The notes under the pieces were generated by a model. The model saw nothing but the letters and a program-made list of their open reading frames with translations, was not told where the DNA came from and made no database searches. Positions 11,058 to 52,027 of a stretch of 64,000 bases of DNA are shown here, one piece after another. How positions within the stretch are numbered: position 1 is the stretch's first letter; each line of letters begins with the position of its first letter. This stretch comes from Bilabrum cf. latius (taxonomy: Eukaryota), in contig OZ237736.1 in NCBI GenBank assembly GCA_965178125.1, forward strand, positions 1,054,001 to 1,118,000. Direction: 5' to 3'. Made by a program: the position numbers and the translations under genes.

Positions 11058-11173
11058 ATTTACCCTCAAACGAATTGAGTAGGAAGCAATCTCGTGGCTG
11101 GATCCGTTGGGTGGATTGTTGCGTGCGGTTGCCGTTCTAGCCGTTGCGGCGCACATTGCTACACACGTCCAGC

Positions 11174-13887: not shown

Positions 13888-13918
<31 letters not shown>

Positions 13919-15195: not shown

Positions 15196-15229
<34 letters not shown>

Positions 15230-17961: not shown

Positions 17962-18068
17962 GCTGAATCGAAGACCTGTCTCTTCGGTCTTGCTGGGTTG
18001 CTGGGTATGTGAGTACCAAAAATTCGCTGCAATGACATTTACTTTTTGTTTATCTGCACCGGCACCAG

Positions 18069-19271
18069 TTAAAATCTTGAATTGAACCACTGCATCGCCT
18101 GCCTCATGAGCTCGCTGTCGACCTCGTGCACCTGCGTCCCACCCAGCTTGGTGGGCCTGTCATCAAAGTGCTCCCAGCCATCGTTGAGCGCCTGCATTGT
18201 CAGTTGGCCGTCCTCCAAGCCTAGGTGCTTTGACACCGCTCCTAGCGCTGCTGAAACTCGCTCGCGCTCTGGCTCTGTGAGCCGATCGAGCCACCCGCAG
18301 TGGCCCCCGTACTCAGCCTCGAGGGCGTGAGCAGGCGCGGGCTTGCCGTCTGCCATCTAGGTTAGCACGAATAGCTCATCGGGCTCAAGCTCATGGAATT
18401 CATAGAATCCATGCAGATCGCTGTTCTAGGCCCCCGACGTTTCTGGGGGCGGTCCAGCAACCGCGCCCCCCTGCCTGCCATCCGGCGTCGTCACCAGCGC
18501 GTCTCCCTCCGACGCCAGTGCGAGCATCGGCACTGGGCAGGGCTCGAGATTTACGGGTCGAGAAACCATGCTCTGTAATAATGCTGCACTTGGCTACTGG
18601 TACGACGCGGCTAAAATTGCCAGCGACTGCGGATCAGCTGTGCTGCGAAGCAACCAGGATGCAGCAAACTGTGCTGCTTCGTCGAACGCCCCCTCTGGTG
18701 TAGGCGTAGCGGGAAACGACTTGGCAACCAATGAGTCGTAGTCGTCATGAGACATAGACTCTAAGGCGTCAACGCCCAGACCAAGCCATCGAGCAACAGC
18801 GCTGGAGCAGTCTGGGCTCGATGGATTCAAGACCAGCATGCCGCTGGCTGCCCAAGACTCCAAGTAGCGCTGAGCAAGAAACACACCACAACCGCTAGAA
18901 ATCAAAATAGGCGCAGAGTGTCCAAGCGTCTCGCTAGCAAGCCGTATAGAATCCACAACAGTTTGGACTGGCGCCTACTCTTCCGCGCTACTCTATGCAA
19001 CTGCTTCGGCGTAGTCAAGTCGCGCTGTCGAGAATCCTCTCTCGTTCAAGTATGGCTCCAAGTGGCAAGCGAATGATAAGGAATTCTACATGACATCAGG
19101 CACGAACAGAATAGGTGTTGCTCGCTCATCAACCCCAGTTTTAGCAGGACGAACAACCACCCGGCTTCCATTTCCCAGCTGAGTACTCGCCATGCGGGAT
19201 AGTGGTGGACAGCATCCCGGTCCTGTACTGTAAAATATCTGGCTGGCCACACGACTACTTCGCCTGAACAT
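18069..19271 (-). CDS. Alpha/beta-hydrolase-fold-like protein (about 400 aa), nucleophile elbow degenerate, possible mitochondrial presequence
   Basis: ORF pieces 19086..19271, 18594..18956 and 18069..18356 share one frame joined by TAG. Motifs TPILFVPD, YLNERGF, PILISSGCGVFLAQRYLES, HEVDSELMRQAMQWF. Ends TAA. Confidence 0.6.
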
Positions 19272-19409
19272 TGCTGCCTGGAGCTTTATGATTTGGTTGC
19301 CTTTGTGACGTGGCTGAGAATGAGACCAAATACTAGCTGCGGACCCCTTTTCCCCACAAACAATAGACTATGATACGTCTGTCGAAAAGATGGTAAGCAG
19401 GCCGCTGAA

Positions 19410-21458
19410 TCAGAGCAGAACGGCATCCTCGGCCAGCAGCCCGGCAGAAGCCACCACGACAGCTCCCTGCAGCAGCGTCCTGCCATTCCCAGTGGTCCTG
19501 CACCGCACCACGCCGCCTCGCTTCGACGCCTGGAAGCCGACCTGCCAGGCCTCCTCTTCTTTACTGGAGCCCTCCCCAGAGGCGGTTCCACCTCTGGCCT
19601 TGCTCTCCCAGTAAGGGCAAAGCATGGTGTGCGCCGATCCAGTCACGGGGTCCTCGTCCACGCCGCACCGAGGACCGAAGAAGCGAGAGGCAAACGTGGG
19701 GCGCTCCTGCAGGTGACGGGTCGCGCTTGCCACCGCATGCTTAAAGGACAAAGAGGAGGAAGAGGAGGGGGGCTCCGATGCGCCGGCACTCGATGCTGCT
19801 GCCTCCTCCCACGCACTCGTCACAACGACACCCCTGCAGTCGACCTTGGCCAGCTGGCCCACATCCGGCTTCATGCCCGCAAAGTCCTCCGGAGACACCT
19901 CGACAAGGACGTCACTCACATTGCGCCCGTGGAACTTCAGTGCCTCGCGCTAGAGGCCCAGCCCAGAAGCGATCACACCGGCTTCATCCGATGCGCCTGC
20001 CTTTTCGCTGACGTCCTCTGCCGCGTTGGTCGGGAAATCCAGCTGAATCTGAGTCTGGCCAGAGGCCGCAGCATCTCCGCTGCCGCTGACACCTCCGTCG
20101 CCGCCGATTCGAGTCGCCTCCAGCGGCCCAGACAGACTCACAAACCGAGCAAGTTTCTGCACCTCAGGCAGGGACCCCGACTTCCAGAGAGCTCCGGCAG
20201 AAGCCAGCGTCGCATGCCCGCACAGATCGACCTCCGTCCCAGGAGTGAACCACCGCAAGCTCCAGGCGCCGGGCAGGTACGATGCCTCGCCCTCACCGCG
20301 GCTGGTTGCCACTCGGAGCAGCGCGTCACCTTTTCTTGCCGCCCCAGCCGCGCGCTCAGCCTCCAGCACAGCCTGCTCGGCCTTTAAGAGGAGCTCGGCT
20401 TCAGTCGCGGTGAACTGCCGTACGAACGCCGTCTCGCTCAGGTTGAACTCGATGGTGATCCGCTGGGCCCAGTCGTACCATTCGCCCCGAAATTTCTCTC
20501 GAGACTCGCTGAGCAGCCATGCTAGCGAGGCCGCGTGATCGGAACCACCCGCACCTGACGAGGCACTTGCTCCTGGACCGCCACTGGCAGTTGTTGATGA
20601 CAGCGAGCGCATCCGACGGGCGAGCAAGTGCTCCAGAGAAGAGACGCCAGCCCCTGGGGGCAACAAAACGACAGCGGCTGGGTTGCCCGTCGTCGGTCTC
20701 CCGGTGGAAAAGGCGTCCAGAACGCAAAATGGAAGCTGGGCCGCTCCAATCGCGAGGCTTGACCGGGGAATGCAAGCGTCGGTGCTAGGCGGCGCCAGGC
20801 TCCGCGTCATGTCGTACCATAAATCTGCGCCGTGAACGACCTTGCTCGGACCAAGCAGCACAAAGCCGCACCTTTTGTAAAGATCAATGTTTCCCTTTTT
20901 CGTAAGAAGCGATGCGCGTTCGAGCTGCCGGCCGCCGTCTGGCCGTTCTACTGACTCCAGCGGGCTGCCCTTAGCGTCAAGATTTGGCACGCATCGTGTG
21001 CTCCAAGATTGTACCAGACGCAGGTACTGCCGAAATAACCAAGTTGCCAGCCCTTTTCGCCTGTGTGCCTCCGAAGTTACAACAGAGTGCACCAGGAGAT
21101 GGTGGCCCAGTGGATTGTGGCTGCCCATGCTGTCCTCGGTGAGCTCGTCGCCATCTGTGAGGGTTCCACATACATAGCCGACGATTTGGCTCGTTCCGTC
21201 CTTTGCGTAGCTTTTCGCAACCAAAAAGAAGGGCCTAGCCTCCGACGCTCTCAGCTCGAGATTGCGCTCGCTCGCAGCCTCATCAGCAGGATACGCTGCA
21301 TTGTCAACCAAACCAAAATATATTTAGTATGTAGTGGCGGCGAACATATAAGCGCGCTGCGGAGGTTGGTGCTATCTCTCACACGTGCTCTCGATCTTTT
21401 TGATTTCATCAAGGTCGCTCCATTCTACCGGTGCTACTGACACTTGGTACTCGTCCAT
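19410..21458 (-). CDS. GNAT acetyltransferase (AANAT/PAA1-like) fused to PhzF/PBLD-family isomerase; intron 21296..21382
   Basis: N-term IESTSYPADEAAS..HSVVTSEAHRRKGLA..LYKRCGF. C-term DAFS..GNPAAV, NLSETAF, RWFTPGTEVDLCGHATLA, SRFFGPRCGVDEDPVTGSAH. One in-frame TAG at 19950. Ends TGA. Confidence 0.88.
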
Positions 21459-21863
21459 AGCCTGTCAGCTAATAGCAAAACCGGACGTGTAGGTGGTCGA
21501 GCAGAATAGACTTTTGTGAGCTTGGTGGAGCGGTGTCCTGATTTTCGAACCTGCGCGAATATGCTGTGACGACTACCGGCCCGGGATCGGATCACACACG
21601 CGTCATAGCGTGACGTGCACGCAACACAGTGCCGCCAGTAGTGTAACACTACTAGTGTTTGGCCGTCAGGCCACGTGGTGTCCTGCCCGCATGGTAACAT
21701 ACCACGACCGGCTAGTAGCTTCACAAATTTAGAAGCTGTCCGAGTCGTTTCACATCAATATCTACTTGCTAGCTGAGAGGGTACAAGCAGCACGCAATGC
21801 CGGTCTGCATCCCGCCACATGCGAGCGAACAGCCTGGGCAGATCTGCACATCGAATCGAGCTC

Positions 21864-23467
21864 TCAGTGGGGCACCTCCTGCCCGCTGCTGAGCTGCGCG
21901 ATCTTCTTCTGGTCAAAAAAGTTCAGCGCCGCCGCCCATGGGCTAGGGCCGTCCCAGCGGTCCTTGAGCATGCCCTCGAAGTACATGACGGGCATGAGGT
22001 CTCTCTTGAGGTACATGAAGGCGGCGTTGGGAGTACCCTGGTCGATGGGGAAGGTCTCCATGGGCTCCTTGGTGAATCCGTTGAACTCCGCTAGCAGCAA
22101 GGAGTTCCGGCCCAGCACCAGAGGGCAGCTCGTGTAGCCATTGTACTCCTCGTTGGGTGCAAAGCCCGACATCATTGCGCGGAGGTTGTGCTTGACCACG
22201 CCTGCCTGAGCCGCGGCTGCAGCCGCCGTCTTGGAGGTGGGGATGCTGCTGCAGTCGCCCAGCGCGAACACGTTCGAGAACTTCGTGGACTGGCACGTGC
22301 CCTGGTGCACGTCCACCCATCCCCCAGCCCCTGCCAGGGGAGAGTTGGCGATGAAATCGTACGACTTCATGCGGGGAGCCACATGCATCATGTCGTAGGA
22401 TTCCTCCCTCGTCTCGTCCGTGAGCTTGCCGCCCTCCACCTTGCGGAAGGTGGCGACCTTCTTGTCCTTGTCGATAGAGTCCAAGTCCCAGCTGAAGTGC
22501 CGGTCGATCCCGCGCTCATCGCAGATCCCGTCCAGCACCTTGCTGTACTTGGGTGCGCCGAACTGGGAGGGGGTGCCGCACATCCAGCGCACCGTCACGT
22601 TGTCCCGGACACCAGCGGTGCGGAAATACTCCTCGGCCAAGTACTGCGAACAAGAATAATTGCGTCGGGAAGCACAGCAAGGGTGTACCGGGGTGGGCTG
22701 GTTTGGTACAACACGGTTGTAACCTCGCTCACCATGATCTTCTGCGGGGCACCGGCGCACTTGATCGGGCTGCTGGGAATGGTGAACACATACGTGCCGT
22801 TCTTGATCGCCTGGATGTTCTTCCAGGTCTGCTCGACAGAGAGGGGGGAGTAGTTGGTCGTCACTCCGCTGGATTTGTCCTCCAGGGCTTCCGGCAGCCC
22901 TGCGATGGCATCAAGCTTTATCTCAATACCAGCTGCTACTACGAGGTAATCATATGTCACTTTCTTTCCTTTCGACGTGACGACCGTGTTGTTCTCAGGG
23001 TCAAAGGTAGCTGCGCCGTCCTGGATCCAAGTAGCGTCCGGCGGCATCACATCACCCATAGGGCGCCTCGTCTCCTCGAGCGTCTTTACGCCACCACCCA
23101 CTAGGGTCCAACCTGGCTAGTAGTAGTGGTTTTGGGACGGCTCGATGATCCCAACCTTCTTGTTGCGCTGGAACGCGCTTGCAACGGAGAGTCCAGCAGC
23201 TCCGCCTCCAACGCAAAGCACGTTGTAGTGGTCATCGCCAGCTGCTTTGGTAAACAAATGAAATTAAATACTGGCTTAGATCAGTGCAACATTCCAGTGC
23301 ATTGTCATCAAAGCCAACACGCTGCTTGTGGCTGGGGTTTCAGAGCAGCTGATTCTGATTCTGAACTTACCCTTCGAGGCCATCCCTCGTACAAACGAGG
23401 TATTTCGCATGCGCTGCGCGGACTTAATGAGTCCTCTTGCTGCACTCCTTGAAACAGCGGCCAACAT
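21864..23467 (-). CDS. SQOR: Mitochondrial sulfide:quinone oxidoreductase; introns 23245..23370 and 22644..22732
   Basis: Presequence MLAAVSRSAARGL, VGGGAAG, HYY*PGWTLVGGG, YDYLVVAAG, KCAGAPQKIM|YL, NVFALGDCSSIPTSKTAAA, YNGYTSCPLV. Ends TGA. Confidence 0.93.
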
Positions 23468-23635
23468 AGCAACTTGGTGTCCGATACGCCTCGGTGACGT
23501 CCCGATGACAGATCCCAGTCTAGGTTCCGCAATTGTAGTATCGCCGCGCGTTTTAGGCATGGCAGTGCAATGCATATTCATTCTGGACAAATTTTGACGT
23601 TTTCTCCAAAAGTAGGTGCTCTGTATGCGCATATC

Positions 23636-26600
23636 ATGCATTGTATCATAGTATTTGTTTGTATTACTCTGATCGCTTGCGGAAATGTGATAAAACCGGA
23701 CCCAGTATCAATTGCATTTGGATCTCGCCGCCGCTGCTTTCTTGCCATTGGTCCAACCCATGTGCAGAAGATTGAGTCTGCATCCGTTGCAAGCGAATCC
23801 CTCTAGTGGATTTATTTGATCTCTAAATGGCATCATGAAACGTTGAATCGGCACCCGGTGATACCAACCGATGCTATTGTCGCTGCCGAGGTGCTTCGGG
23901 GGGGTTCCCATTCACTAAATCCAGCCATTGGTGCACCCAGTCGACGGTGTCCACCCATGCCAAGCATGCTTCGCAAGCATATGGCCGGTAGGCTGCGCAA
24001 GTGCGCCAGGGGCCTAGACTTGTACGGGTCGGCTCGAGAAGCATGGCAAAGAAGCGTGTCTGCCTGCATTGGGTCAGTCAAGAGTCCCCTCATCCAAAGA
24101 GACACAAGGTCTATTCTATTGGTGTCTGAGGTGTTGCAAGAAATGGAGCTCGAAGTGGCCACATATGAGGTCATGCTGGCCGCTGGGTTGTTGCAGCCTG
24201 CCGTGCTCGACTCGACGAGAGCTCCCAATACGTCGTGTATTCGGACTGCAGCTGACCACGAACACGGTGACAGCACCCGTTCTCTTCCCAGAGGAGATGA
24301 ACTGCTCACGATGGTACGAGATGCCATACGGCGTGAGGCAGAGGGCCCCTGTGTTGCTTGCTCGCCGAGCGGAGGGCCGGCAGGACCTGTAATGCAAACG
24401 TTCCACGAAATCGTAGCAGGGTTGCCCGGAGACCCGTGGTGGTCTTTACAGCATACTTCAATAGATAGGGGTGGGACTTCAGGTCAAGTGCAGCTGCGTG
24501 CCTTGTCGAGGGCGTCTTCGATCGTTCGAAGGCTGCTGCTCGGGCTTAATTGTCAACCACCGTACGTGTCGGGGCTTCGCAGCTTTGTTGTGGAAAGGCG
24601 CCAAAATGCAAGCTACGATATGCAAAATGTTAGTGCAGATTTGTGCACTGCACTTCCGGCTGTACTCGCGATCGCACAGCCCGCTGAATCGCATAGCCAC
24701 GTGCAGTTTCCGTATCGAACAGCTCGTCTAGAGATCTGTCGACCGGACGGGTCGACGCTCGAACCCCCACCGGGTGCACTGCACAATACGGATTCTCTAG
24801 AACGATGGATTGATAGCAATGCTGACGTCAAACTATGCTACCCAGCTCGGGGTCCAGACACTATCCTGGGGAAGGGCTAGAAGCAGGGCACTGCCGACGA
24901 CGATTTCTCCGCAGTCCGCCCCCACGCCGACGACGATGTCCTGCTGACGAGTCCCCGCTTGCCAATAGCGATGCATGGAAATGGTCAGGATTCAGATGCA
25001 CGCGCATATTGTAGCGTTCTTGAAGATGCAGCGCGTAGATGGATGTTTAGACGCGAAATGACTCAGGCCGCTCGATCTGCGCTAGCTTGCATCGGGCCTG
25101 CGGCTGCCCACTTGGAGCGGTAGCCCCTGGTGGATCGCTCGGGCCTTGCCAATGCCTCGGCCGCCATATTGCCCCAGCTGCATTCGTGCATAAACTAGCT
25201 GAAGGAAGCGCTGCATCGCCAGATTACAACCCACCGTGCCAGCAATAGATCACGGCAGCGACTGGTCGGGCAAGCCTGCCCCACCGAGACTACTCGAAGC
25301 ATATAGCAGCAGCTGCCACTGGCAGCAGTACACCAAGCTACTTTTAGCAGTCCCAAACTAAGTTTCCCGCTGATGCCAAAGTTCTAGCCTGGGAATGCTG
25401 CTGGCCTGACAATAGAGGACATTGTGGCGCTGTCCACTCCGCGCTGGACCCCGCCGATGCGCGGCATCCGCAGGCATGGCCTTCGATGGAATCACGAGAT
25501 GGTCGAAGCACGTGACCAGAATGTTGAAATAGAGCTTGCGGGAATAGTCCCAGCCAGTCTGTCCATGGAACAGAACAATAACCTTGCCTTCGCGACCCGG
25601 CAGGACGTGCAAGGGCCAGCTAGCATCCGCCTTGCACAGAACATCGATGCTAATGGTGCGGATGTTGAATCTCATGCACAGCCGGCTTGCACCGACGACA
25701 TCCTCACCAACGTGTCTGTGGAGTTGTTGATCTTGTCATTTGATCTCGCCGACCGGGTCTAGTACGTGCAGACCATGCTACAGGATTTAGCTACCTCCTT
25801 GCGTTCGACATACGAGACACACTGCATCGTCTGGCACTTGCGGATACGAGTCGTCTTTGGGTCGAGTGATGCGCTGCTGAATCAAGTTGAGGATGCAATG
25901 GAACGCGTGAAGCGGCCGGCGGGAAATGAAACCCGTTCGAAACCAGTGCATGCAGCTCGAGGGACTAGCCCACTTGGCGACGCGGCAGGCTGCGCTGGAG
26001 CGGCCCTCGAGGGTTTGCTAAATGCCGGCTCAAGAACAGAATAGCACGCACCTCTATCGTTTGATTCTACGACAAAGGGAAAAACAGGCATATGCGGGAA
26101 TGTAGCCGAAACCCCGGGCTCGACTCCTGCAGCAGACATCGCCGCAGACGACTAGCGGGCACTCGATGCTCTCGCTCAAGTTGTGCGCACTGCACAGCAC
26201 CTGTGGTCGAGACATTGGCCATCGGAGGAGTATCTCAATCTATCACACCGTGTTTCTCTGACTGGTGCTCCAGCTCCTAGGAGTCTTGGCGTCTCGTTTC
26301 CTTGGTTCGTGCGCTCGAGATACCTGGTGCGCTCCGCACTTGCCGACGACGGCCCATCGGATGTCATGATGATGCAGGAGGATGACACGGCAATATCAAT
26401 GCACCACGTATTGCATATGATGCTGCGCATCAATGGTCGATGGATGGATGGGCACTTTGTTGCAAAGATAGACACAGCCGAAGGTCGCGGTATCGCAGTT
26501 GCTTTACAGAGACTGCCAGAGATGATCCTACCCGTCCCAGTTCTGATTGAGGATGCGCTTGTCGGTGAACGATGCCTATACAACCGAACATCTTGGCTTC

Positions 26601-27289
26601 GAGAGGCGCTCGGAGATCAGCCGATAGTGGAATCCTGCGATCATGTTCGGCCGGCTGACCCTGCCTCGCCATCGTCAATGATGCCCGGTCTGACTTTGCA
26701 GCTGTCAAACGGTTGGCCGGTGTACAGGATCCGACACTATAAAGACGGAAATGCGCAGTCAAGGCACAATACTGCATTTGAAGATCAATGGGTCAGCGCA
26801 CCGTACAACATGCATTTCGCGGGCACTATGCTCCCAGGCAAACTGCTGGTGCACCTGGCGATGGAAACCAAATGCATTGATCCTCGGGTGCCGCTGCTGC
26901 CTCACTGGTAGTACCCGCCTATCGATAGGAGCCAGGACCAGCCGTATACAATATGCGGATTCTCGTCTGTCTTTGACTTGCCACCCGTTGGTTCAGTGCT
27001 GGGCGATGACGCATGGTAGCGATGGGCCAGGTCGGTCACCATTTGGCACAGGCCCAATAAATACGTCGGCAGGCACGTGTGGTTGCAACGCACGGATGCA
27101 GAACGCACGGCTGCTGCAATGTACCTTACAGGCCTATCACCGCCGCAAGGGCTAGGCAGTCCGCTGTCTGGGCTGCCTGGTGGCTTTCACGAGTTCGGGC
27201 CTAGCTGGCCAGATCTGGTGGGCAAGATGGTTGCGATCAGGGATTCCCACGAGGGCCTAGGAACCATGCGGAAGATGTAGGTGGACTGA
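23636..27289 (+). CDS. Hypothetical secreted protein, about 1217 aa, no recognised domain
   Basis: ORF pieces at 23570, 23816, 25424, 25766, 26183 and 27077 share one frame interrupted only by TAG. Signal-peptide-like MHCIIVFVCITLIACG. Ends TGA at 27287-27289. Confidence 0.65.
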
Positions 27290-27343
27290 CCGATGCAAGA
27301 CAATAATGTTTTGACAATCCAAGCAAGCCATACTACGGCGAGA

Positions 27344-30300
27344 TCATTGCGGTGAAGCTCCCCGCCCGGAGCCCCTCGCGAACTGTGCAGCGCGTGCCGC
27401 TCCAGTGGCAGCCCTCCTCGCCCTCAGTGCGTCATACTCGAATTCAAGCTCCTCCTCCCTCTCGATCTCAGCAACAAACCGATCCACCAGCTCCTCCAAG
27501 GGAGGCACTCTCCGCAGGAGCGTGTGGTAACGCCGCTCGTGCCCGCACACGTCGCACTTGTCCGGGGCAAAGAGTCGAGCCACGAACCCGGTGCACTCAG
27601 CCTACCTCCTGCCACCCGACGGAGTGGCCGATCTGCCTGTGGATTGGGGCCTCCCAGAAGAAGGAGGCCCCTCCTAGTCCTTGCCACCATTCTCAGCTTC
27701 CTCCCTCTCTTTCGCACGCTTGTCAAGCTCTTTGCCCTTCGTGACTGCCTGTGCGCCAAGGGCTTCGGCCTGCGAGCCCAGGACAGACCCGTCTGTCGGG
27801 GGCGCAAGCACGCACAGTGGCCGGTCGCGGTTCAGCTCTAGTAGCTTCTGACGCTCTTCCTTGGCTCTGTCGACTGCCATGCGCAGCACATCGTCCTGCG
27901 CTCCTCCCGTCGCCCTGTCCATCATGGCCCCTCTCCTTTCCCGCGCCGCATCCAGCATCGTCATGTCTCGCTCGCGCCACTCCGGCCACGTCTCTGGGGC
28001 GTACGGTGCTGTGGACACAATTGTGCACCGGTCACCACATGCAACAGACACAGCCGACCCAACACCGTACTCTCGAAGCCCCTCGACACGGCCAGGCATC
28101 GGAGTGAATGCAGGATTGCCCTCTGCAGCGACAGAGGCGGGCCTGCCGAGGCAGTTCGCAGCATTTGAGCCCCACGTCCATACTTCGCCATCCGTTGACA
28201 GAACGGCAGTGTGATACCTGCCCAGAGATGTCTCTGCCACCACCACGTCGTTTTCTAGCAGCGCCGTTACAAGTTCAGGCTCCTCTGCTCTGGTTCTACT
28301 GCCCAGGCCCAGCTGCCCCACGCCACCGGAACCCCACACGTACAGCCAGCCTCCCTCCACGAGTGGAGGCACCTGCACAACAGCTGCACTGTGCCACGCA
28401 GCCGCCTCCACTTGGATCACTACCTAGCCACGGAGAGCCTTCACTTCTTGCGGCACATCAAACACGCGGGATGATAGCGTGGACGGGTCAGGTGCTCTCC
28501 TCCCAGCGTGCGCACGGTCTGACTTTGACCTTGCGGCCATGGCTGCCGCCTGAGAAACGCCATGGCTGCCGATTCCTAGCCTGCCTCCGTCAGCAGATCC
28601 CCACGAGTACACGCCCTTGTCAGTGAGCGCGACAGTGTGGGCAGCACCGCACGATACTTGCAGGACTCGCATGCGGGACGAAAGCCCTCCCGCCGCCACA
28701 GCTGCCGCGAGCGAAAACACTGGTACAGGGGTGGGTACCGAGACATAGCCTCCTTCCAGCGCTCCCCCCTTCCCCTTTGCCTCCGACTATCCCTCGGCCA
28801 CCGGCAATCGGCTGCCTGCTCTCCCCTACGAGGCCGTGTTCTGCACCCTAGGCCCGTGGTTTCTGACCGACCCAAGACCGAGCCTGCCAAAGTTAGCCGA
28901 GCCAAACATGAGCAGCTCTCCTTGGCTCGTTACGACCGCTGAATGGCTTGAGCCTACGGATGCGCATACGACCCTTCCTTGCGCAGGGAGGCCAAGATGC
29001 TCCTCCGTGTCCATCAGAAACGGAAACGAGTGAAACCTGCCGTCCCCGCCGAGACCCAGCACACCCTGCCGTGCCGCTCCAAAGACGAATACATCGCCTC
29101 CCGAAGTCACGGCTACTGCGTGCTACCCCGAGACAGCCACCTGAACGACACATTCACCGCGCAGTTCCCGCACCTCAGTGGGCGGCGAAAAATCGGCGTA
29201 TCCGCGCATGTCAGCGTCCACGGCCCTTTCGATGTCAATGTAGTTCTGTTCACCCCCCCAAGAGGTAGGGTCAAAGCGCTTGCGTTCCCCGAATCCAAGC
29301 CTTTGGTTGGAGAACGCCTTGACAGCGAGCTGCATGCCGGTCTCAGCGGTAATCTTGTCCTTCTCCCTGGCACCCTTGGTGAGCTCCCACCACTTTTCCT
29401 GCGGGACGTCACCCTTCTTGATCGCCTCGTACGGATCCGACTCGTCCTCTTCGAACCCGTTTGGTACACTCCGCGCGTCGCGTACGAAAGGTTCCCCGGC
29501 GGAGGGCGAAGCACCACCCAACTTGCCTGGCAGCGAGAGCGGTGGCAGCTGCTTTCTAGAGGTGGAAGTTGAAATCTACTTAGTATCCAGAGAGTTTACG
29601 GCAGTGTTATGGCCGACAAGGGAGTGTCCCGCAGCTTTTGCTTCTTCTTGTTCCTATGCAATGGAGGCAACCCCTCGGAGAGTCAGGCTATGCTGCAGCG
29701 CAGACCGGGGTGTGACTGCCTTGGCGTACCCAGTCTTCGAAGCACCGGGATACGGCTGCCCTGACAATGGCATCTGGTCTACGCTGGGTATGATCGGGCC
29801 AGCTGCTGGTCCCCTCCCGAGCGATGAAGACGGAACCGAGCTCAGTTTCCCGCCGCCGGTCAGATTGGCCAGCGTTCGGTCGGATCCCGCGATGGGGGTG
29901 CCCGCACCCATCGCAAGCAGGGCAGATCGTGCCTTTGCCCGGGTCATCAGCTGGACTCCATGCCCTCTGCTCGCAGTACTGCCTCCGGAGAAGGTACCCG
30001 CCATGGGGGCTGCCTCTGCCGCTGCAAGGGAAGCCCTTGCCTCTCTCCTGGCAGCCAACGCATCCTGCCCGGTGCTATTACCGCCAGCACGCTGCCATCG
30101 CTGCTTGTCAGCATGGGTGAGCCATGGGATATCAACTGGGGTGGCAATTGGTTTCGCCTTCAACTTGTCCGAAGCCTTGCTCTTCGCTTGCATTGCGTCG
30201 CTGGTTCGCTTTGCCCGCGCTCCCCGGGCATTGCGACCCCGCTTGCTGGCCTTGCGACGCTCTGCCTCTTCCGCCTGCGACTGCCTTCTGCGTCTTCGCT

Positions 30301-33025: not shown

Positions 33026-33280
33026 TCTTCGCGAGCCGAGCCGTTTGAAACTTATTCGATTGGTCTGAAAGAGGGGCAGAAGTGGGCAGTACCGTTGTGA
33101 GACCCAGGCGGTCGCAACCTTTCAAAGTTCGGTCGACAGTGCCAGCGGTCGCAGACGATTCGAGAATTCAGGCTGCATGGGTAACTTCTTGGTGCTTAGG
33201 ACAACCATCTGACCACACAATCTAGCCAACACATGGACCGCATCGGAGAGCAGCTTCTCCGCGGCTCGCTGCCCTCCGCC

Positions 33281-34550: not shown

Positions 34551-34743
34551 GTTACGCGACGGACCAAGTATCGAGCTAGAGACTTATCTTCTGCTGGATC
34601 CAGTCGACGCGTCGTTGGCGAACTGGCGCCGCGCATTACGAACGTTCTTTGGGACCAAAGGATTTGTAGGTTCCGCTGCTAGGATCGAGTTGCACTTTGC
34701 GAAATCCCCGCAGCAGCCGCCATTACCCGGTGATTGCACAAGA

Positions 34744-37257: not shown

Positions 37258-37482
37258 TTTGAGAAGTTAGTGCATACGTGCAAAATGACTATCTGATCGC
37301 TATCGCAAGTAAACGACGCATCGCCGCAACTTTGCATTGGAGAACGTTCCGGGCAGCGGTTCGCTCGGTCAAACGACTCTGTGCACTACAGCCGAGCCAC
37401 AATTGAACCTGAATTGGGTTTCCGAGGAAGGTTGAGCTAGCACACAGGTGATACAAAAGAAAGCCAGTAAAAGAGTTCTGCG

Positions 37483-40400: not shown

Positions 40401-43400
40401 CTGCAGTGGCCTATTCCACCGGCAGCACGACCTCTGTAAACCTCACCCTGGCCGAGGTGAACTACAACCAGAGGAAGGCAACGGAGTCTGCTGGCCAGAA
40501 CGAGACTTAGACTCGCAACTTCATGCTCTACTCGAGCCAGGACACGACCGGGATCCTCTTCCTGGCAGCTACCGCCGAGGCAGCCTATGGCGAGCTTGAG
40601 TTCGACGACGCTCCCATCGTTGAGGTGGAGGCGCCTCCTCGCTGGGATGACGGATCCGTGGCACCGCTTGAGCTGCCCTACGACTTCCAGTGCCATTGGA
40701 AGGAAACGGATGGGTGGCCCTCGGAGGAGAATCCCGGTAAGTGGTCTGCCGTGCAGTCACCCGCCGATGCGCCAGGAGTGCTGAGCCTCATCATCACGGG
40801 TGATGAATACTAGCCCGGATCGTACGCGTGCTCGTCGGTGGTGTCCTAGATGGGCTTTGGCCTGGGCGTGATCGGCATGGAGATCAGCGACCTGAACCCC
40901 GGAGAGACGGCCAAGCACAACGTGCCTGCATTGGGTTACAGGCTGTTCCGGGCGACTGTGTCCTCCACTGCCTCTGCGGCTCGCATTTCTCTCCGATCTA
41001 CCCAGGGCGACGCCAACCTGTACGTGCACCACCGGATGTTCCGCACCTTCCCCCGCAACGACTGGATGTGGAGGAGCAAGGAGCGAGCCGGGGTCGTGGA
41101 CGAAGTGATCGTCTCCAGCCTGGACACGTACTACAGCGAGGAGCTCTGGATCGCCGTGTACGCGCAAACAAGCGCCGAATTCGAGATCTCTCTGCAAGCG
41201 TATGAGAGATTGGAGCAGGGAGACACGGTCCGCAGGAGCCTCGAGTCCCAGGGATACAACTACTTTGTCGGCACCGCCCCCGAGAGCGGCGGCAGCGGCG
41301 CAGAGCGATCGTTCAATCTTCGCGTGCACGCACCGGAGGACGCACCCACTACGATGGGCATGTACGCAGGATCCCACGACTCTTTCTTTCCCGTGGTGGG
41401 CCAGGGCTTCTCAGGGATCTCTGTCGAAGGGATCGGCCAGGGTCAGGTGGCAGCAGCGGAGCGCCCGTACCTGCCCGGCTCTGAGATCGCGCAGCAGATG
41501 ATCATCGCAACGAGATCGGACTTCCACGATTCTGTCAAGCCAGGTGACACGGGGAACCAGCAGGGTACCAGCATCGCCGATGTGAGTACGCAGGACAGTC
41601 GAAGGAGGCTGGCAGCAGAAGCGCATACCAACCTCACCCTGTCCTCGTCTGCGGCCAGGCGGCGCGCCATGGCCCTATCGGATGCGTTTGATGATCTTGC
41701 CCGCCCCAGTTTCGTGGAAGAGGAGGAGATGCTCTTCAGGCGCAGCACTCAGGGCGGTGGCCTGCAGGTGACCTACCCAGACATCGAGTGGGCGCCGCTG
41801 CTGGGTGAGGCACCCGTCCCAGGGCAAGTGGACGCGGGGGCTGGCAGGCGTCTGGCATCTTAGCAGCCCGCGACAGAGGGTGCCACCAGGAAGCGCGGCG
41901 CATTCCTGACCTAGGAGTAGTACAATCAGAGGGAGATCGCCAGGGCGCTGGCTGCCAAGCGCACCGTGGAGGCTATCGTGCAATCCACCAAGATTCCAGA
42001 AGCTGTGCACAGCGGGCGAGAGCTGATGCCCACGGACCACGGCATCAGGGTCGAAGACGGTGCGGCCGACAGGTGGGTCAGTTTGCGGTCCGAGACGCCG
42101 CACGGTCTCACCCAACGCCATGAGTCCGCTGGAGCGCTGCGGCGCCTCAATGCGAACGCTGCTCCCAGTGGTCCCAGTGCTGCGGACTCGTGGAAGTTTC
42201 AGGTGCCATTCGATCGGTTCCAGGGCGGCTTCTGGCAGCGAGTCGTCAACTGCAGCGTGACGGTGGGCGACGTTGTCTCAAGGCAGTGCGCTCTGGTGCA
42301 AGCAGACGATCGCGACACGACCCACTTGAGGCTGATGCTGCCCGCCCGGTCCGACATGCTTGTGAGCGTTGCCACAGTCACGAGAGCCGGCCAGGCTTCT
42401 GACGCCGCGTACACGTTGCGCGTTCGAGCCAACGAGCCCCCAGCTGCAGGCATGGCCGACCTTGTGGCTACCACGGCCACGCAGACGTTCACCGTGCCCA
42501 ATTGCGCGTACGAGGAGGAGGAACTCTACATCGCGGTGGAAGGGCAGAACTCGGGCAGGGACGTGCAGTTCCAGGTGCTGCTTGCAGGCACGCTGTCCGT
42601 GAACGGTGTTTGCGAGAGCTTCGAGTGGGCCTCCACTGCCTGGCGGGCGTGTGACGTCGAGTGCGGTGAGGGCACAAGGCGAAGGGCTGTGTGGTGCCAG
42701 ACTACCGGAGGCACCGTGGTGGATTCGTCGCTGTGCAGCCAGGCCCTCAAGCCCGCCGAGGCAGAGGCATGCGACGTGGGCGAGTGCGCCTGGTCCAACT
42801 CGGGCTGGGGCGCCTGCTCGGAGCCGTGCGGTGGCGGACAGCAGAGCCGCCTGCTCGAGTGCCGAAACAGGAACGGAGAAGGCCGGCTGGTTCTGGATGC
42901 TCACTGCGCAGACCCGCCCCTCGGGTCTCGTGTGTGCAACACGCAGGAGTGCCCTGCCAGGTTCTGGTACGCTGGAGAATGGCAGGCGTGCACGCAGCGC
43001 TGCGGCGGTGGCCTCCGGACACGCGAGGTTCTATGCGCGCAGCGCGGCCCGTGCACGTTCGAGACAACCGACGGGCGCACGGAATTGTGCGCCGAGCAGC
43101 GCAGTGCTAACTGGCACGTGGTGGACGAGGGCCTGTGCGACAGGAACGAGAAGCCAGCTGTGGAGGAGGCTTGCGGCACGGACAACTGCAGGGCACTCGA
43201 GTACGATCTCAGCTACTTCGATTCGGTGGCCCTTGTGAGTGGCACGTCGGAGCAGGTCGCGCTGGCGGCCGGACAGAACGCATTCTTTACGTTTGAGAAG
43301 CCCAACGCCGCCACCAGGGGTGTGTGCGTTCGGGCGCAGAGCTTCGAGCCAGAGGGCAGGAAGTGCTCCATCGAGGCGGAGAGGAGGGTGGGCGCCTGCA

Positions 43401-46165
43401 ACAGCGTGCTGCTGGGCTGCCTGCATACCGCCAAGGAGACTTTCCCAGGCGCCACCACAGGCGCCAGGCCCTAGTTCGCCGACCTCAAGGATGCGGTCAC
43501 TGAGTGCCACGGCAAGCACCTTCAGTGCGTGTCTATGGACGTGTGCAATGATCGGGTAGAGGCCACCGTGGAAGCAGCCAAGGAGAGCTGCATCACCACG
43601 TTCCAGGCACTTGGTCTGCTCAATACCACATCCACTTGGACGGAGGCAGAGAGCCTCTGCACCGTCCCAGCGACCGCAAGTAACCAGGACGAAGTCGCCC
43701 CACGCGAGCTCCTGCTGCATGTAGCAAAGGCAGGGAGTTCCCCCGATGACCCTGTGCTTCGATTTGAGCCTCCTATTGGACCGACCACCTCTGACTGGGC
43801 CTCGCACAGCCCCGACAAGACTGGGGAACAGCGCATGGTGATCTGGGAGACGGACGGCTACGACCGTGACGCCGATCGCATCCTGGTGGGCCTTGCTGCG
43901 CCCAAGGGGCCCCTGAGGGCGACCATACGAGTCGAGGCATTGTCGTCATTCCCCGCCCAGGCTTCTGGCTCCCTGCTCGGTGGAGCTTCCGGGACCATCA
44001 CTGCGGAGATGATCCGGCGCGGCGGCCTGCAGCTAGAGCTGACATTGTCATGCGACCTGTTCGTGGACCCAGCCGAGCTGGCGGCCAAGCAGAGGGCCGA
44101 AGCCGGACTGAACGCAACCATCGTAACGGAGGCTGAGATCGAGGCGAGGCGAGACAACGGCACGCTGACGATCGCTGATGTGGACGCGCTCAAGAATCAG
44201 AGGACGATGACACCCAACATGCTGCTGCTGGGCATCAACGCACGGGAGTCGTCGGCAGCTGGGTGGAACTCACTGGCCCAGCCCGGCATGCTGTACGACA
44301 CGCAATCAGCGGACGACCTTGTGCGCTTCTCCTTCGGCATGACACGCGCCACGGTGACCCTGCCTCCCGTGCCCGACTACAACCCCAACGGAGACGAGCG
44401 GCTTCAGATTGACATCCCTGCCCTGATGCTGCGGTCTGGCGTGAAGACCAGCGTACCAGGAGCCGTGGTGACTGTACTTTCAGACATGGCCGACTGTCAG
44501 GTGGGCCCGTGGGGACCTTGGTCTGCATGCGATTCGATCTGCTCGGATGGCGTGCAGCGCCGGCAGCGGCAGGTGCTGCGAGCACCCCGCGGCGAGGGGT
44601 CCGCGTGCCCCGTGACTATGCAGACGCGCGACTGCAACACGTGCGACCAGTGCTCTACACGCTCTTGCCTGAACGGCGGGCTCTGCGTGCAGGGCCAGTG
44701 CCAATGCAAGCCCGGCTACTTCGGCGAGGGCTGCGAGGCACCTCCTCGCGATCCCGACGCGGTGTACTACTACACCGTGGGCGAGTGGGGCTCGTGCACG
44801 GCGCAGTGTGACGGGGGCAGGCAGGTGCGCGAGGTGGGCTGCGCCCGTCTCAGCGGTGCTTCGGCCCAGGGAACAAGCCGGGCCGATGCCAGTGTGGTTC
44901 CTTTGGACATGTGCATCCAGCAGGGTGCAATCGCCGGAACCATGCCAGCAGAGGAGAGGGCCTGCAACATGTTCGCGTGCGAGGACGAGGCGCGCGTGGA
45001 CGGAAGCACCGTGCTGCAGCTGCCCGCTGGCTCTCTCAGCCTGAGCCTGGGTGACGCCAATTCCGCTGACGCTTTGATCGAGGACCTGCAGTCGGACCTG
45101 AGCCGGGCCCTCTTTGTGTCCCTGCGCCGCGTGCGGATCGACACGATCGAGCTGGAGGGCGAGGCTGCGGATGGCAGCGAGTCGGCTCGGCTGAACTTTA
45201 CGCTGCTACCCATTTCCGGAGCCACCTTCGGGGTCACCTCTGGGGCGAGCAGCGAGGCGGGCGCTCGCCTCGATACGGTCACCGCCGAGCTACAGCGGCA
45301 AGTGGAGGACCCTGCGAGCGTCCTTCGCACGCGAGGCACTTACCTTCGCCGCATGGATCCCGCCACTGTTTCGCTCGAGGCGAGATAGGGTGCAACTGGC
45401 ACGATCGTTCCGCTGCAGCAGCAGGACCCACCAGCCGTGCAGGCGTCGGCGTCCCCGAGCCCTTCCTCGAGCCAATCCACCGGGGGGGGCAGCGGTGGTG
45501 GTACCAGCAGCGGTGGAGGGAGTAGCACTGGGCAGACCGGCTCAGCGGGTGCAGGAAATGGGCAGACTCCTCAGCCCAGCGCGCCCGCCACGGTGGTGGA
45601 CCAGGACCCGGTCTCCACGGTAGACAACGGCACGCAGTCGGGTCAGCTGAACGGCAACAACAACAGCGGCAGCAACGGGGACGGGGACGATGACCGTTTT
45701 TCTGCAGCCATCCTGGGAGGCCTCTCCGCTGCCATCGTGGTCTTGGCCCTGGCTGTGGCAGGCATGGCAGCCTACATCTACATGCGGAGGCCGGCGCCAC
45801 CAGCATAGCTGGCCAGTGCCAGTGCGGCAGACGACTCGGATGCCCACGCACCGGAGGACCACCCCCACTCTGGCAGCCCTCAATTCATCGCCAGCGGCTC
45901 CGCGGCGCGGTACGGCGCAGACAGAAGCAGCGGTGGCAGCGCTTAGAACTCCATGTACCGCGGGTCCGGCGCAGCGGCGATCGCGGCACACGGCAGCAGC
46001 AGCGGCCAAGCCCAGGCTGCTGACAATGCAAGCAGTGCTTCTCCTGATGCGCAGCAGCAACGGGAGCCGAGAACCAGCACCGGGAGCAACAGTGCCAGGG
46101 TGCAGCCGTCGAGAGACTAGGCTCCGGCAGGGGAGGAGGACCTCGTCGTGTCAGAGATCGCTTGA
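37483..46165 (+). CDS. Very large type-I membrane protein with multiple thrombospondin type-1 repeats, an EGF-like domain and a C-terminal TM helix; introns 38015..38112 and 38527..38642
   Basis: Signal peptide. TSP1 repeats WSACSVDCGVGVQTREITC, WRACDVECGEGTRRR, WGACSEPCGGGQQSR, WQACTQRCGGGLRTR, WGPWSACDSICSDGVQRRQR, WGSCTAQCDGGRQVR. EGF CLNGGLCVQGQCQCKPGYFGEGC. TM AILGGLSAAIVVLALAVAGMAAYIYM. One frame through TAG at 40508, 40811, 41861, 43472, 45386 and 45806. Ends TGA. Confidence 0.82.
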
Positions 46166-46405
46166 TCCCAGGATGGGGAGTGTGTGAATACGTGATTGTT
46201 TCTCGCCGAATCTCCTAGCCAATTCATCCAGAAATAGGCAACCACCTCGGTGGTGGAGACACCCACCTCGCCGATCCCGAATAGTCCCATCACTGGCAGA
46301 TTCTTCCGGTCTCGGGGAAATGCGACGAGTTGCATTTGCTTGTGCTTGCAGAGCCGGACACTCGGCTAACAAAGTCACTTTTCACTGCATTCACTTCTGA
46401 AGGCA

Positions 46406-48244
46406 ATGGCTATGTAGTGTGGGGTATGGCTAGTTGCGGCCAGTGCCTACCTAGTCTCCGCTTCAAATGACGCGCAGCGACCTAACTTCGTCGTGGTTCT
46501 CCAAGATGATGTGGGGTACACAGATTGGGGCTGTTTTGGTGGTGTGTACGCCGAAACTCCTGTTTTGGACAAGCTAGCGGCCGAAGGGTTGCGCATGACT
46601 GATTTTTATGCTGCCATGCCTCTATGCTCCCCGACTCGCGCCGCCCTGCTCACTGGAAGACTGCCGATACGGAATGGGTTTTATCAAGATGCTATTTTTG
46701 GTAGGAATGCTGTTGCATCGGAATTCGTAGACGGAGGCCTGCCTCTCAATGAAACCACAGTCGCTGAACTCCTCCGGCGATCTTCGTATAGGACGGGCAC
46801 GTTTGGCAAGCAGCACTATGGATTCCAGCCCTAGTACTGGCCTGATAAGCGCGGCTTCACAGAGTCATTTGGAAGCCCGGGCTGCCATTTCGTGCGACCG
46901 GATCTACCCAAGACCCCTGGGATCCCCATCATTGCGAATGGATCCATGGTGGGCAGAACCTACGAGGGCAAGTTCGCGATCAACCGAACGTCAGGGGAGA
47001 GCAACATCACCGTCTAGTACACCGATGCCGCTTTAGATTTCATCGAGAGGGCAGCCAACGCGAAAGACCCGTTCTTCTTATACCTGACGCTGGACAGCAC
47101 GCATGCCCCTGCCTACGCCTCGAAGCAGTTCCTGGGGAATTCGCCTCGGGGGGTCTTCGGTGACGCTATGACGGAAAACGACTACTCGCTCGGTCGAGTG
47201 GTCGACTTGCTCGACAGTCTCGGCATCCGTAACAACACCATGATGTGAGTGGTGCAGGCACCCCTAGCTTCACGGCACCATGCCGCACGCCTCTTCCTTC
47301 TGCCCCCAACCGTGGAGCATTACCTCTAGTTCGCGACCCAACACTAGACTGCGACTCCTTCTTTGCAGTTGGGTAACCTCTGATAATGGTCCAGCGACAT
47401 GGCTGGCCCCTGAAGTGAGTGCGCAGCGGTGCAGCTCGCATCCCTGTCCTTCCATAGACCCTCAGCTGGCTTGAATGGCATGCACAGGCTCCTCGTCGAC
47501 ATGAGTGAGACCTCCTGTCGCTCTTTATCTCACAAGCATGGCTCGCAGTACGGCACCAAGGGCCCTCTGTTGTGCGGCAAGCAGGCTACCACAGAAGGCG
47601 GGATGCGCGTGCCGGCACTGGTGAACTGGCCCGGGCGAGTGCCACGGGGTCGCGTGACCCACGGGATGGGCGCGGTGATGGACATCTTCAGCACGGTGCT
47701 TGAGCTTGCAGGGGTGCAGCCGCCCTCGGACCGCCCCTACGACGGCGTCTCCTTGTGGCCTCTGCTGAGCGGGTAGACGACTCAGTCACCGAGGACCACG
47801 ATGTTCTACTACCGCGGCAACGGCCTGTTCGCCGTGCGTTTGTAGAACTACAAGGCGCATTTCTGGACATGGTCCAACACGAACCAGAGCACGGGCCCCG
47901 ACCATTGGCCGGGTGACAACTGGGATATCTGCAGGGGGGACGACTCGCCGTGGGTCGCCACACCGCAAATGACCAACCGGACCGAGATGCCCGTGATCAT
48001 TAACCTGACCCAGGACGTGGGTGAGAGGGAGCCGCTCCCATTCGGGTCTGACGAGTACAACTCGGTCCTTCCTGACCTTGTCAGGTTGAGAGAACAATTT
48101 CTGGCCCACCTCGCGCCCGGTAAGGCCCAGCTCACGTATTGCGATCCCGCGGTGGGACCCTGGTCACCGCCTGGGTGCAAAGAGGTCGACAGCTGCTACC
48201 CGACCCCACCAAACAACCGGACGACCTGCGTCTTTCATCATTGA
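46406..48244 (+). CDS. GALNS: N-acetylgalactosamine-6-sulfatase-like sulfatase; introns 47245..47368 and 47415..47547
   Basis: RPNFVVVLQDDVG, LCSPTRAALLTGRLPIRNGFY (CxPxR), TSDNGP, GPLLCGKQATTEGGMRVP, YKAHFWTWSN and a GALNS-like Cys-rich tail WSPPGCKEVDSCY..CVFHH. Ends TGA. Confidence 0.85.
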
Positions 48245-48366
48245 CGAGTGTCGCGAGGGTCTCGACTGTCCAAGGCTTACCGACCCATTGCTGGCTCGGA
48301 CGGCCTGGTACGATTGCCGGGGGGTGGGCTTGTACAACACCCGCGATTGATGTAACAAGCCGTCAA

Positions 48367-49680
48367 TTAAAGCAGCGAGACGCCGATCACGTTCGGATCA
48401 TCGAATGCAGTCACATGCTCAGTTACATCATCAGAGGCACTCGCTGGCTAGCGTTGATCACTATTGTCACCACCATCCCCTTGATTCTCATTCGAGCCCT
48501 CTGGGTCTTTGTCCAGCAGCGGCGCTCCCTCTTGGGTGGGAAGGCGCGGCGCTGTGCCGTCTGCCTCGGGTCCATGGCCCCCCCGCAGCACTGCGTCAGC
48601 CACGGCCAAAGAGACGAACGACAGCCCCACGAGGCCCATCCCGATACCCTCTAGCACGCCCACGTGCGCTCCTTGCCATGCGTCCACTGCGACGTTCAGC
48701 GGCAGGCCCATGATGGTCCCCACAGCGACGTACAGCGGATACGTGGTCGCGACACCGACGGCAATCGACAAGTTGAATGCCATGCCGGCGAGTGACGATA
48801 GAAGCTGCATGCCCCACGGGAAACTGCTCCATTCTACATGTTGCCATCCCGATTGCAGCACCGCCAGCACGATGGCCCAGCCAATGAGCAGCATGATGGC
48901 TCCAATGCTCGACAGAAGCAAGAATGCAAGTCGCACCGTAGAGGCTCCGTACACACGACGATAGAGGACCTTGTATGCAGCCGCTGCCAGTGCTGCGATA
49001 AGAGCTAAACCGCAACCGATAATGCTCCGGGTGCCAGACATGTGGAGCGGCCCCCCTGGCGCACCACTCGACGCTGTACCAAGGACAACCATGCCAGCCC
49101 CGCCGACTGCCAAGACTGCTGCGACAGCTCCTATCGCGACGTGTGGTGGGCGCTCCGATGGACTCAAAAAGCAGTAAGATAGTATGGCCACCCATGCGGG
49201 TGCCGTGTTAAACAAAGCGGTTACTATGCCGGCGTCCACCAAAGCCAAGCTTGAGATGTAGGAGATGTTGGCAATGCTCCACAGTAACCAGAATATGCTT
49301 GCAGTCCCGACCCACACTGGCCCGGAGGCTCGATTATGTGCCTCAACCATACACCTGTTTTCTGCTGGGGGCGTGTGTCGGCACTGGATTGCATTTCCAA
49401 GCTCGCTGAGAAACTGCGAGAGCTGCGCCCAATCCTGCGGTTCGCTCACAGATGACCTTGTAGACGCGCGATTCGAATCAAAGCTAGCATAAGTGCCATT
49501 AGAATCTAGCAGCGCAAGATAGCAAGGAAGATATAGCACGTGGAGAACGGTGCCAAGCACGGCCGAAAAAATGGGCGAAGCTTGATCCACTACCTTGGCG
49601 CTCAGCTACGTTGAGGCACACCATGTACATCCAATTGCAATAACTAGAATTAATCCAAGTATGTGTTGTCTGATATTCAT
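48367..49680 (-). CDS. EamA/DMT SLC35F3/F4-like transporter, about 437 aa
   Basis: ILGLILVIAIGCTWCAST*LS, WSIANISYISSL..TALFNTAPAWVAILS, AAAYKVLYR, TYPLYVAVGTIMGLPLNVAVD. Reads through TAG at 49606 and 48448 and ends TAA at 48367. Confidence 0.8.
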
Positions 49681-49816
49681 TCTTCGTATTGTCCGTGGAT
49701 GAGCTGCAATCCGGTCGACGGCAACATTCCGAGTAGATCTGGGGATGCACCCGTAATTGTCGTCAACGCAGCAAGCGCGGGGACGCACCCCACGACGCAT
49801 CTAATTTTCCTTGCAA

Positions 49817-51836: not shown

Positions 51837-52027
51837 TGCCAACGCTATGAGGCAACGTATTGGAGGCCCATTTGTGGATCCGATCAATTCTGCGGACCGT
51901 GAGGCATTCAGGACTCTGTGCAGCTTGGACGCCAACGAAGGATATTCTTCGACAGAATTTATTCGATTCTCCGTTACGATACCATAATTATCGAAAGCTC
52001 TTGCTAGGTCGGCGATACAGCGCCGCC

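Follow-up and report, generated by a model that had tools for sequence, protein, structure and literature searches.

We analyzed a 64,000-nucleotide (nt) stretch of contig OZ237736.1 (positions 1,054,001 to 1,118,000 of the forward strand; assembly GCA_965178125.1, Bilabrum cf. latius), referred to below as the window, and found that its genes very probably follow a nuclear genetic code of the table 15 type, in which UAG encodes glutamine and both UAA and UGA are stops, UGA being far the commoner, in a genome that is rich in guanine and cytosine (GC) and resembles that of a heterotrophic stramenopile. The evidence from the window and from one relative, a 6.8-kb metagenome contig that we call L001, gives good support to a reassignment of UAG alone, with UAA kept as a stop. 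With the standard stops, the window contains only short open reading frames (ORFs), whereas reading through TAG opens ORFs of up to 2,477 amino acids (aa). The base composition ranges from 53 to 67% GC along the 64 kb and is about 60% overall.

The in-frame counts carry most of this conclusion. We took 11 long ORFs, 13,392 codons altogether, that have the same limits under table 6, in which TAA and TAG both encode glutamine, and under a code that reassigns TAG only; because these limits do not hinge on TAA as a stop, the count of TAA within them is not circular. Frame 0 of these ORFs holds 88 TAG, no TAA and no TGA, whereas TAA is frequent out of frame in these sequences, with 27 in frame 1, 54 in frame 2 and 26 to 49 in each antisense frame. 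In a wider set of 17 ORFs, which contains 111 in-frame TAG, the A-ending codons of twofold pairs are in ordinary use (CAA/CAG 158/506, GAA/GAG 253/705, AAA/AAG 107/392, TTA/TTG 38/177). Since such codons are not rare, 19 to 28 in-frame TAA would be expected beside the 88 TAG if TAA were also a glutamine codon, and the probability of finding none is 4e-11 at the CAA share of 0.238 and 4e-8 at the TTA share of 0.177. Ambiguous codes of the Condylostoma, Blastocrithidia and Amoebophrya types, in which every stop is reassigned, would call for in-frame TGA, TAA or both, and neither triplet occurs in frame in the 13,392 codons.

The same contrast appears when gene models are left aside. In a flank test, every stop triplet on both strands was taken in turn, and the 40 codons on each side had to score as coding and be free of TGA; calibration gave a sensitivity of 0.81 and a false-positive rate of 0.07 per flank. 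An earlier setting (threshold 15 over 50 codons) had been too strict, with 5 TAG passing, and was recalibrated to the 40-codon version. Both flanks were coding for 69 of 1003 TAG, 3 of 391 TAA and 7 of 1581 TGA, and, of the three flank-positive TAA, two fall on the strand opposite to the TSP1 gene and one (23264-23266) is intronic according to a contig joint. In this test TAA behaves like TGA, and TAG behaves like a sense codon. Counted over all stop triplets, TAA is the rarest (192 + 202, against 490 + 516 TAG). The preliminary description had stated that the coding frames it traced contain no in-frame TAA, which both the ORF counts and the flank test bear out; the case that it had named as its own refutation, an ordinary table 6 code with TAA kept low by the high GC, is rejected within the window by the missing 19 to 28 codons.

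The relative L001 (positions 1-6765; GC 48-63%) was found by a metagenome scan with an alignment designated A1. A first metagenome scan with the transporter gave 61 pattern matches and a genome-contig scan with the ALG2 alignment A2 gave 47, none of which was confirmed in either case. By comparing L001 with window positions 46370-53000, we found that gene order and orientation are conserved (Kelch, ALG2-like, transporter and arylsulfatase genes) and that the proteins are 53 to 85% identical; the intron positions of the sulfatase and Kelch genes also look conserved. In frame, the 1,819 codons of L001 include 16 TAG and no TAA; the other frames hold 11 and 12 TAA, the CAA/CAG usage is 19/35, and the chance of finding no TAA, estimated from its own counts, is about 0.001. 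Since L001 shows the same pattern as the window, the trait belongs to a small clade and not to one assembly.

Alignment of the window with L001 also indicates what TAG encodes. In six aligned exon pairs, which give 27 directional comparisons, the partner of TAG is Q nine times and another TAG twice, and each other residue occurs three times at most. The rate at which Q is the partner equals that of the standard Q codons (44%), and it is at least 10 times that of E, K, R, L, S, G, A, Y and W, for which the rate is 0 to 4%. Two single sites bear on the question:

57204..57206, plus strand: TAG in frame where an AGC-kinase motif has its conserved glutamine (AFxNKERL, compared with AFQTHDRL of AKT2)
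52761..52766, plus strand: CAG TAG, read as the QQ of LDLPQQTPL; in L001 these columns are occupied by TAG CAG

These alignments support the assignment of TAG to glutamine, used in the same way as CAA and CAG.

The ends of the genes indicate which triplets terminate translation. Among the roughly 19 to 20 complete genes of the window, 17 end on TGA (18 if the doubtful ORF 37471..38079 is counted), 2 on TAA and none on TAG, and all three complete genes of L001 end on TGA. In-frame TAG is spread along the genes and also occurs close to their true ends; the TSP1 gene has one 14 codons before its end. The first of the two TAA ends lies in the following arrangement:

18069..19271, minus strand: gene for a 400-aa protein with an alpha/beta-hydrolase-like N-terminal part; an ORF with 6 in-frame TAG that ends on TAA
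18069..18071, minus strand: TAA stop of this gene; the protein ends ...QWFNSRF
18039..18041, minus strand: second in-frame TAA, 10 codons past the first, read from the sequence
17841..17843, minus strand: first in-frame TGA on reading through both TAA (table 6 ORF 17841..19271), which falls 120 nt into the coding part of the convergent EF-hand ORF
16372..17961, plus strand: convergent EF-hand ORF; its stop, TGA 17959-17961, is separated by 107 nt from the TAA of gene 18069

Across this TAA, the codon score falls from 12.3 upstream to 0.7 downstream, a drop like those at the TGA ends at 27287 and 1208. The gene has no Pfam family and a word-index search returned no match, and a full HMMER search retrieved fragments and remote alpha/beta hydrolases, among which the top named remote match came from Cafeteria, followed by Aplanochytrium. 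Three of the database fragments (P0122, P0123 and P0125, 92 to 99% identical) are pieces of gene 18069 bounded by its TAG codons 99, 226 and 305. The last residue of P0123, which is 99% identical and stems from a different data set, is the last residue before TAA 18069.

For the transcripts we used three sequencing runs (X5, X7 and X8) that were taken as RNA by guess and that carry spliced contigs. Over gene 18069, no splice joints are listed in the contigs of these runs, and X5, which has depth in all 30 bins, has none listed over 18002-19335. Inspection of the sequence found no GTGAG-type donor just upstream of TAA 18069 or of TAA 48367, the end of the second gene. One X5 contig piece ends at 17995, others end at 27299 and 27293, and depth steps occur near 18000; as contigs cannot show RNA ends, no inference is drawn from these positions.

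The second TAA end is arranged similarly:

48367..49869, minus strand: gene for a multi-pass membrane (transporter-like) protein, an ORF with an orthologue in L001; the database protein P0001 is 68% identical
48367..48369, minus strand: TAA stop of this gene; the protein ends ...GVSLL
48277..48279, minus strand: second in-frame TAA, 30 codons past the first and ahead of the next TGA (48238-48240)
46370..48244, plus strand: convergent arylsulfatase gene of two exons with Pfam Sulfatase and Sulfatase_C domains and an L001 orthologue; it ends on TGA 48242-48244, 122 nt from the TAA

Here too the codon score falls, from 7.3 upstream to -8.9 downstream, and read-through from 48367 would reach TGA 48238-48240, overlapping the last 7 nt of the arylsulfatase gene. 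The end of the arylsulfatase is firm, because Sulfatase_C is matched to position 126 of 127, its last-but-one position. At the other end of the transporter ORF, the first ATG (49869) lies 53 nt inside the 3' end of the ALG2-like gene on the same strand (49817-49869), and the L001 transporter orthologue begins at window codon 64. On this comparison the true start is probably the methionine at codon 64, in which case the TAG at codon 23 would be noncoding. The preliminary description had proposed that the genes at 18069 and 48367 end on TAA, that reading on would run each into its convergent neighbor, and that TGA, never TAG, closes the other complete genes. All of this holds: the read-through TGA falls inside the EF-hand ORF in the one case and overlaps the arylsulfatase end in the other, and the remaining 17 or 18 ends are TGA. 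The two convergent pairs are spaced 107 nt (17961-18069) and 122 nt (48244-48367) apart; a third, at 27289-27344, has a spacing of 54 nt, and there two X5 contigs share 7 nt (27293-27299).

The ORFs that lengthen under table 6 could have concealed a sense TAA. Four ORFs grow at their 5' end under table 6 compared with the code that reassigns TAG only, and two of them, the GNAT-PhzF and Kelch ORFs, were followed in detail. The introns concerned are:

21296..21382, minus strand: GNAT-PhzF intron, an 87-nt GT-AG intron that was first predicted from the sequence and then found as joint 21295>21383 in X5 and X7; it holds the TAA of the table 6 extension
23242..23370, minus strand: intron of the SQR-like (sulfide:quinone-oxidoreductase-like) gene, seen as joint 23241>23371 in X7; it holds the TAA 23264-23266 flagged by the flank test
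52527..52620, plus strand: inferred RPEL-Kelch intron (GTGAG..CAG), whose flanking exons align with the L001 orthologue; it holds TAA 52606-52608

The Kelch orthologue in L001 revealed an upstream exon with RPEL repeats, in a different frame from the Kelch exon. The other two are the mitochondrial-carrier ORF, extended to 35126 under table 6, for which the upstream stop under the TAG-only code is a TGA just 5' of the first ATG, and the ALG2 ORF, extended to 51871, for which it is a TAA just 5' of the first ATG. None of the exons examined, those of the GNAT-PhzF and Kelch extensions included, requires TAA.

Several observations weigh against a code in which TAG alone is reassigned to glutamine and TAA still terminates. 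Only two TAA ends are available, and the RNA contig evidence on them covers the one at 18069. Both TAA-ended proteins have C-terminal tails of low conservation, so homology pins neither C-terminus independently; the L001 transporter orthologue ends on TGA after a tail that is non-homologous and does not align. The fragment P0123 is so nearly identical to the window protein that it may stem from almost the same organism and does not count as independent evidence, and P0124 (66% identical) is conserved to residue 390 and stops 10 residues short of the window protein. It stops where the window has CAG, which would fit a TAG at that position in P0124. With regard to the amino acid, P0124 and P0125 carry E/K and P at TAG codons 282 and 305 of gene 18069, and the ten TAG columns of the M16 peptidase, aligned with 120 homologues, are variable or gapped (for example D/H/E, K/A/Q and L/P/M) and give no verdict. 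In one long ORF (23570..27289, plus strand; 1,239 codons, 12 TAG, no TAA or TGA, no Pfam family, a low codon score and cover by RNA-like contigs), a TAG precedes the terminal TGA by two codons, so that a dual sense and stop role of TAG near gene ends is still conceivable. Finally, the sample consists of one 64-kb window and one 6.8-kb contig, and the taxonomic placement is based on two genes.

These points feed into four other readings, which we weighed against the first. An ordinary table 6 code, with TAA and TAG both glutamine, TAA rare through high GC, and both TAA-ended ORFs running on to the next TGA, draws on the GC of 53 to 67%, on TAA being the rarest stop triplet, and on the fact that most eukaryotic reassignments covered in the relevant parts of PMC11687900 shift UAA and UAG together. 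It is extremely unlikely nevertheless, because it has to account for the absence of TAA beside 88 in-frame TAG while off-frame TAA is common, for a flank test that places TAA with TGA, for read-through that crosses a second TAA and overlaps a convergent coding end each time, for the intronic position of the TAA in the examined 5' extensions, and for the same absence in the 1,819 codons of L001. It is quite unlikely that TAA is instead avoided or unassigned and no working stop, the two TAA ends then being only apparent, through alternative splicing or 3' introns that went unseen. The TGA at 15701-15703 in an EF-hand gene does show how this could come about, as it resembled a gene end yet proved intronic, the message continuing through two 3' introns, and the contig check covers only one of the two TAA ends, that at 18069. 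On the other side stand the lack of listed joints over gene 18069 in X5, X7 and X8 despite X5 depth in every bin, the lack of a GTGAG-type donor just 5' of either TAA, and the fall in coding score directly after both TAA, each of which is followed by a second TAA in frame. It counts against it as well that eRF1 is not known to drop UAA and keep UGA unless UAA turns into a sense codon.

A context-dependent TAG, read as glutamine inside genes and as a stop near some 3' ends in the manner of Condylostoma, would leave UAG only partly uncoupled from UAA. The TAG two codons before the TGA of ORF 23570..27289 and that 14 codons before the end of the TSP1 gene are compatible with this, and some 20 gene ends are too few to tell against rare TAG stops; however, none of the window's roughly 19 to 20 complete genes and none of the three in L001 needs a TAG stop, and the occurrence of TAG close to true ends is the opposite of the near-stop depletion described for ambiguous codes in the relevant parts of PMC11687900, so we regard this reading as unlikely. 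That TAG stands for another amino acid, such as Glu, Lys, Leu or Ser, is very unlikely. Nuclear codes with UAG as leucine and as serine do exist (PMC11687900, in the sections concerned), and many TAG columns are variable, both in the M16 peptidase and among the relatives of gene 18069 (E, K and P), but Q is the commonest partner of TAG, at the same rate as for standard Q codons, TAG stands on a conserved glutamine of the AGC kinase, and CAG and TAG are swapped at the QQ pair. A code with UAG as glutamine and with UAA and UGA as stops accounts for these results with the fewest difficulties.

Such a code would require changes in both the tRNA set and the release factor, as the preliminary description had proposed. 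According to the relevant parts of PMC5304391 and PMC11687900, a UUA anticodon would read UAA as well as UAG, CUA reads UAG alone, and eukaryotes use one release factor for all three stops. Because UUA reads both codons, a code that reassigns only UAG implies a tRNA-Gln with anticodon CUA, which would read UAG and could not pair with UAA, and a genome that has no tRNA-Gln(UUA). Because there is one eukaryotic release factor, the single eRF1 would have lost or weakened its recognition of UAG and kept that of UAA and UGA, and a change would be expected in the regions that read the third base of the stop codon (GTS, NIKS and YxCxxxF). In the known cases, eRF1 of Iotanema has the T32G change in the GTS motif and eRF1 of exLh has Ala at position 69 (PMC5304391 and PMC11687900, in the parts dealing with eRF1). 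A tRNA scan found no tRNA genes in the window or in L001, and there is no eRF1 gene among the Pfam-scanned ORFs and exons of the window. If the change arose in a GC-rich genome with UGA as the main stop, UAG should not have been scarce beforehand; codon capture driven by AT content could then not explain it, and the route through tRNA-Gln(CUA) and eRF1 would be favored.

UAG-only glutamine codes have been reported for Iotanema spirale, Protocruzia tuzeti, Hartmannula sinica and Trochilia petrani, and UAG is leucine in the rhizarian exLh and in TARA metagenome-assembled genomes (MAGs) of phyllopharyngean ciliates and serine in Scotinosphaera (PMC11687900, as far as its account of these codes goes). 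The precedents named in the preliminary description, Iotanema and phyllopharyngean ciliates, agree with this account. Iotanema spirale (Fornicata; Panek et al. 2017, PMC5304391) is alike in that UAG is the sole reassigned stop, encodes glutamine and is explained by an inferred tRNA-Gln(CUA) and a modified eRF1; it differs in being a metamonad and not a Cafeteria-like stramenopile, and UAA is dominant there, whereas here UGA closes 17 to 18 of about 20 genes and UAA two. The ciliates Hartmannula sinica, Trochilia petrani and Protocruzia tuzeti (McGowan et al. 2024, PMC11687900) likewise have UAG as glutamine along the gene body and UAA as a stop. Their GC is 27 to 54% and UAA closes 87 to 98% of their genes in the data given there, compared with about 60% GC and UGA at about nine in ten gene ends in the window, which also belongs to another lineage and has introns and a normal chromosomal gene order. 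The table 6 codes of many ciliates, Hexamitinae, Ulvophyceae, Streblomastix and Amoeboaphelidium share UAG as glutamine with the window but differ in sense UAA, which is found in none of the 13,392 codons here. In exLh, the TARA phyllopharyngean MAGs and Scotinosphaera, UAG is uncoupled from UAA as it is here, but means leucine or serine and not glutamine. Code-15 giant viruses (GVMAGs V2, PMC13524828) and crAss-like phages (PMC9523058), as described in the relevant sections, also read TAG as glutamine and keep TAA and TGA as stops; these are viral genomes, whereas the window is cellular, with spliceosomal introns and genes for ALG2, ATG101, XPG and a mitochondrial carrier.

A full-text literature search, in which most subscription journals lay outside the coverage, found no nuclear stop reassignment in stramenopiles, bicosoecids or Bigyra. 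The kind of code is known, and its lineage and its GC-rich, UGA-dominated setting are apparently new. UAA and UAG nearly always share their meaning, and each independent split tests why, setting tRNA wobble against the single eukaryotic release factor. In this case the compositional background is opposite to that of the UAG-only codes known from ciliates, Iotanema and exLh, in which UAA is the main stop according to the parts of the sources that deal with them. If the code is as described, a Cafeteria-like flagellate that reads TAG as glutamine would be a plausible kind of host for, and perhaps a cellular counterpart to, the giant viruses that do the same, because Cafeteria itself hosts a giant virus (10.1101/751586); the isolated giant viruses, as stated in the relevant part of PMC13524828, all come from standard-code hosts. 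Taken jointly, it is possible, at somewhat less than an even chance, that this is the first nuclear stop reassignment in stramenopiles, that it is common to at least two related species, that it arose in a GC-rich genome with UGA as the main stop, and that its bearer is a candidate host of giant viruses with TAG as glutamine. There is a practical side, too: public gene calls for the lineage are broken at each TAG, P0122, P0123, P0125 and P0001 being short fragments from calling with the standard code, so that its proteins are truncated and under-represented in databases.

The placement of the window relies on the M16 peptidase and gene 18069. In a search with the M16 peptidase, the top named match was Cafeteria roenbergensis (E 1e-187) and the next named one was Aurantiochytrium (6e-96). 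In a quick maximum-likelihood tree of 24 rows, the window protein is the sister of Cafeteria and a JGI protein, with an SH-aLRT (approximate likelihood ratio test) support of 99; the careful tree search was unfinished, and long branches and uneven composition limit the tree. Within it, the M16 protein belongs to a separate paralogue clade with Cafeteria and environmental proteins, outside the usual insulin-degrading-enzyme clade. Provisionally, the two genes, at 33 to 38% identity, place the window with heterotrophic stramenopiles near the bicosoecids. The amidase matched generic amidase clusters only in a protein atlas and gave no taxonomic signal. The M16 (insulinase-like) protein itself (1206-5429, minus strand) is 1,407 aa long and contains long low-complexity inserts.

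The gene set behind the counts is the following:

1206..63998, by Pfam domains and ORFs: M16 peptidase, polycystin channel, amidase, EF-hand proteins, GNAT-PhzF, SQR-like protein, ORF 23570..27289 and RCC1 protein
1206..63998, continued: mitochondrial carrier, PL8 lyase, TSP1 protein, sulfatase, ALG2-like GT4, RPEL-Kelch, AGC kinase, ATG101 and XPG

Pfam families were found in 14 of the 19 ORFs scanned under TAG read-through, and the domains are typically eukaryotic, among them M16 insulinase, polycystin channel, EF-hands, RCC1, mitochondrial carrier, PL8 lyase, thrombospondin repeats, GT4/ALG2-like transferase, Kelch, AGC kinase and XPG. Extra exons belong to an SQR-like oxidoreductase, the arylsulfatase, ATG101 and a Hid1-like protein. 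In the 14000-33999 stretch, six short GT-AG introns are bridged by RNA-like contigs of the three runs. The window is eukaryotic nuclear DNA, gene-dense with few short introns, and neither a virus nor an organelle. A giant-virus or endogenous viral origin was rejected in view of the spliceosomal introns, the cellular housekeeping genes and the synteny with L001.

Two further features of the RNA-like contigs concern single genes. The SQR-like gene (21864-23370, minus strand) stands out in all three runs by its contig depth, which is by far the highest and reaches 233 in X5 compared with about 12 for its neighbors, contig depth not being a measure of expression. In the large EF-hand gene, around 15699-16100 on the plus strand, the apparent TGA end at 15701-15703 is intronic: X5 has the joints 15699>15801 and 15982>16093, and the spliced message ends on TGA 16098-16100. 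An alternative acceptor AG 4 nt further on, with the exon starting from 16097, keeps the frame open into the EF-hand ORF 16372..17961 on the same strand, and the large EF-hand gene and this ORF may be a single gene with alternative acceptors.

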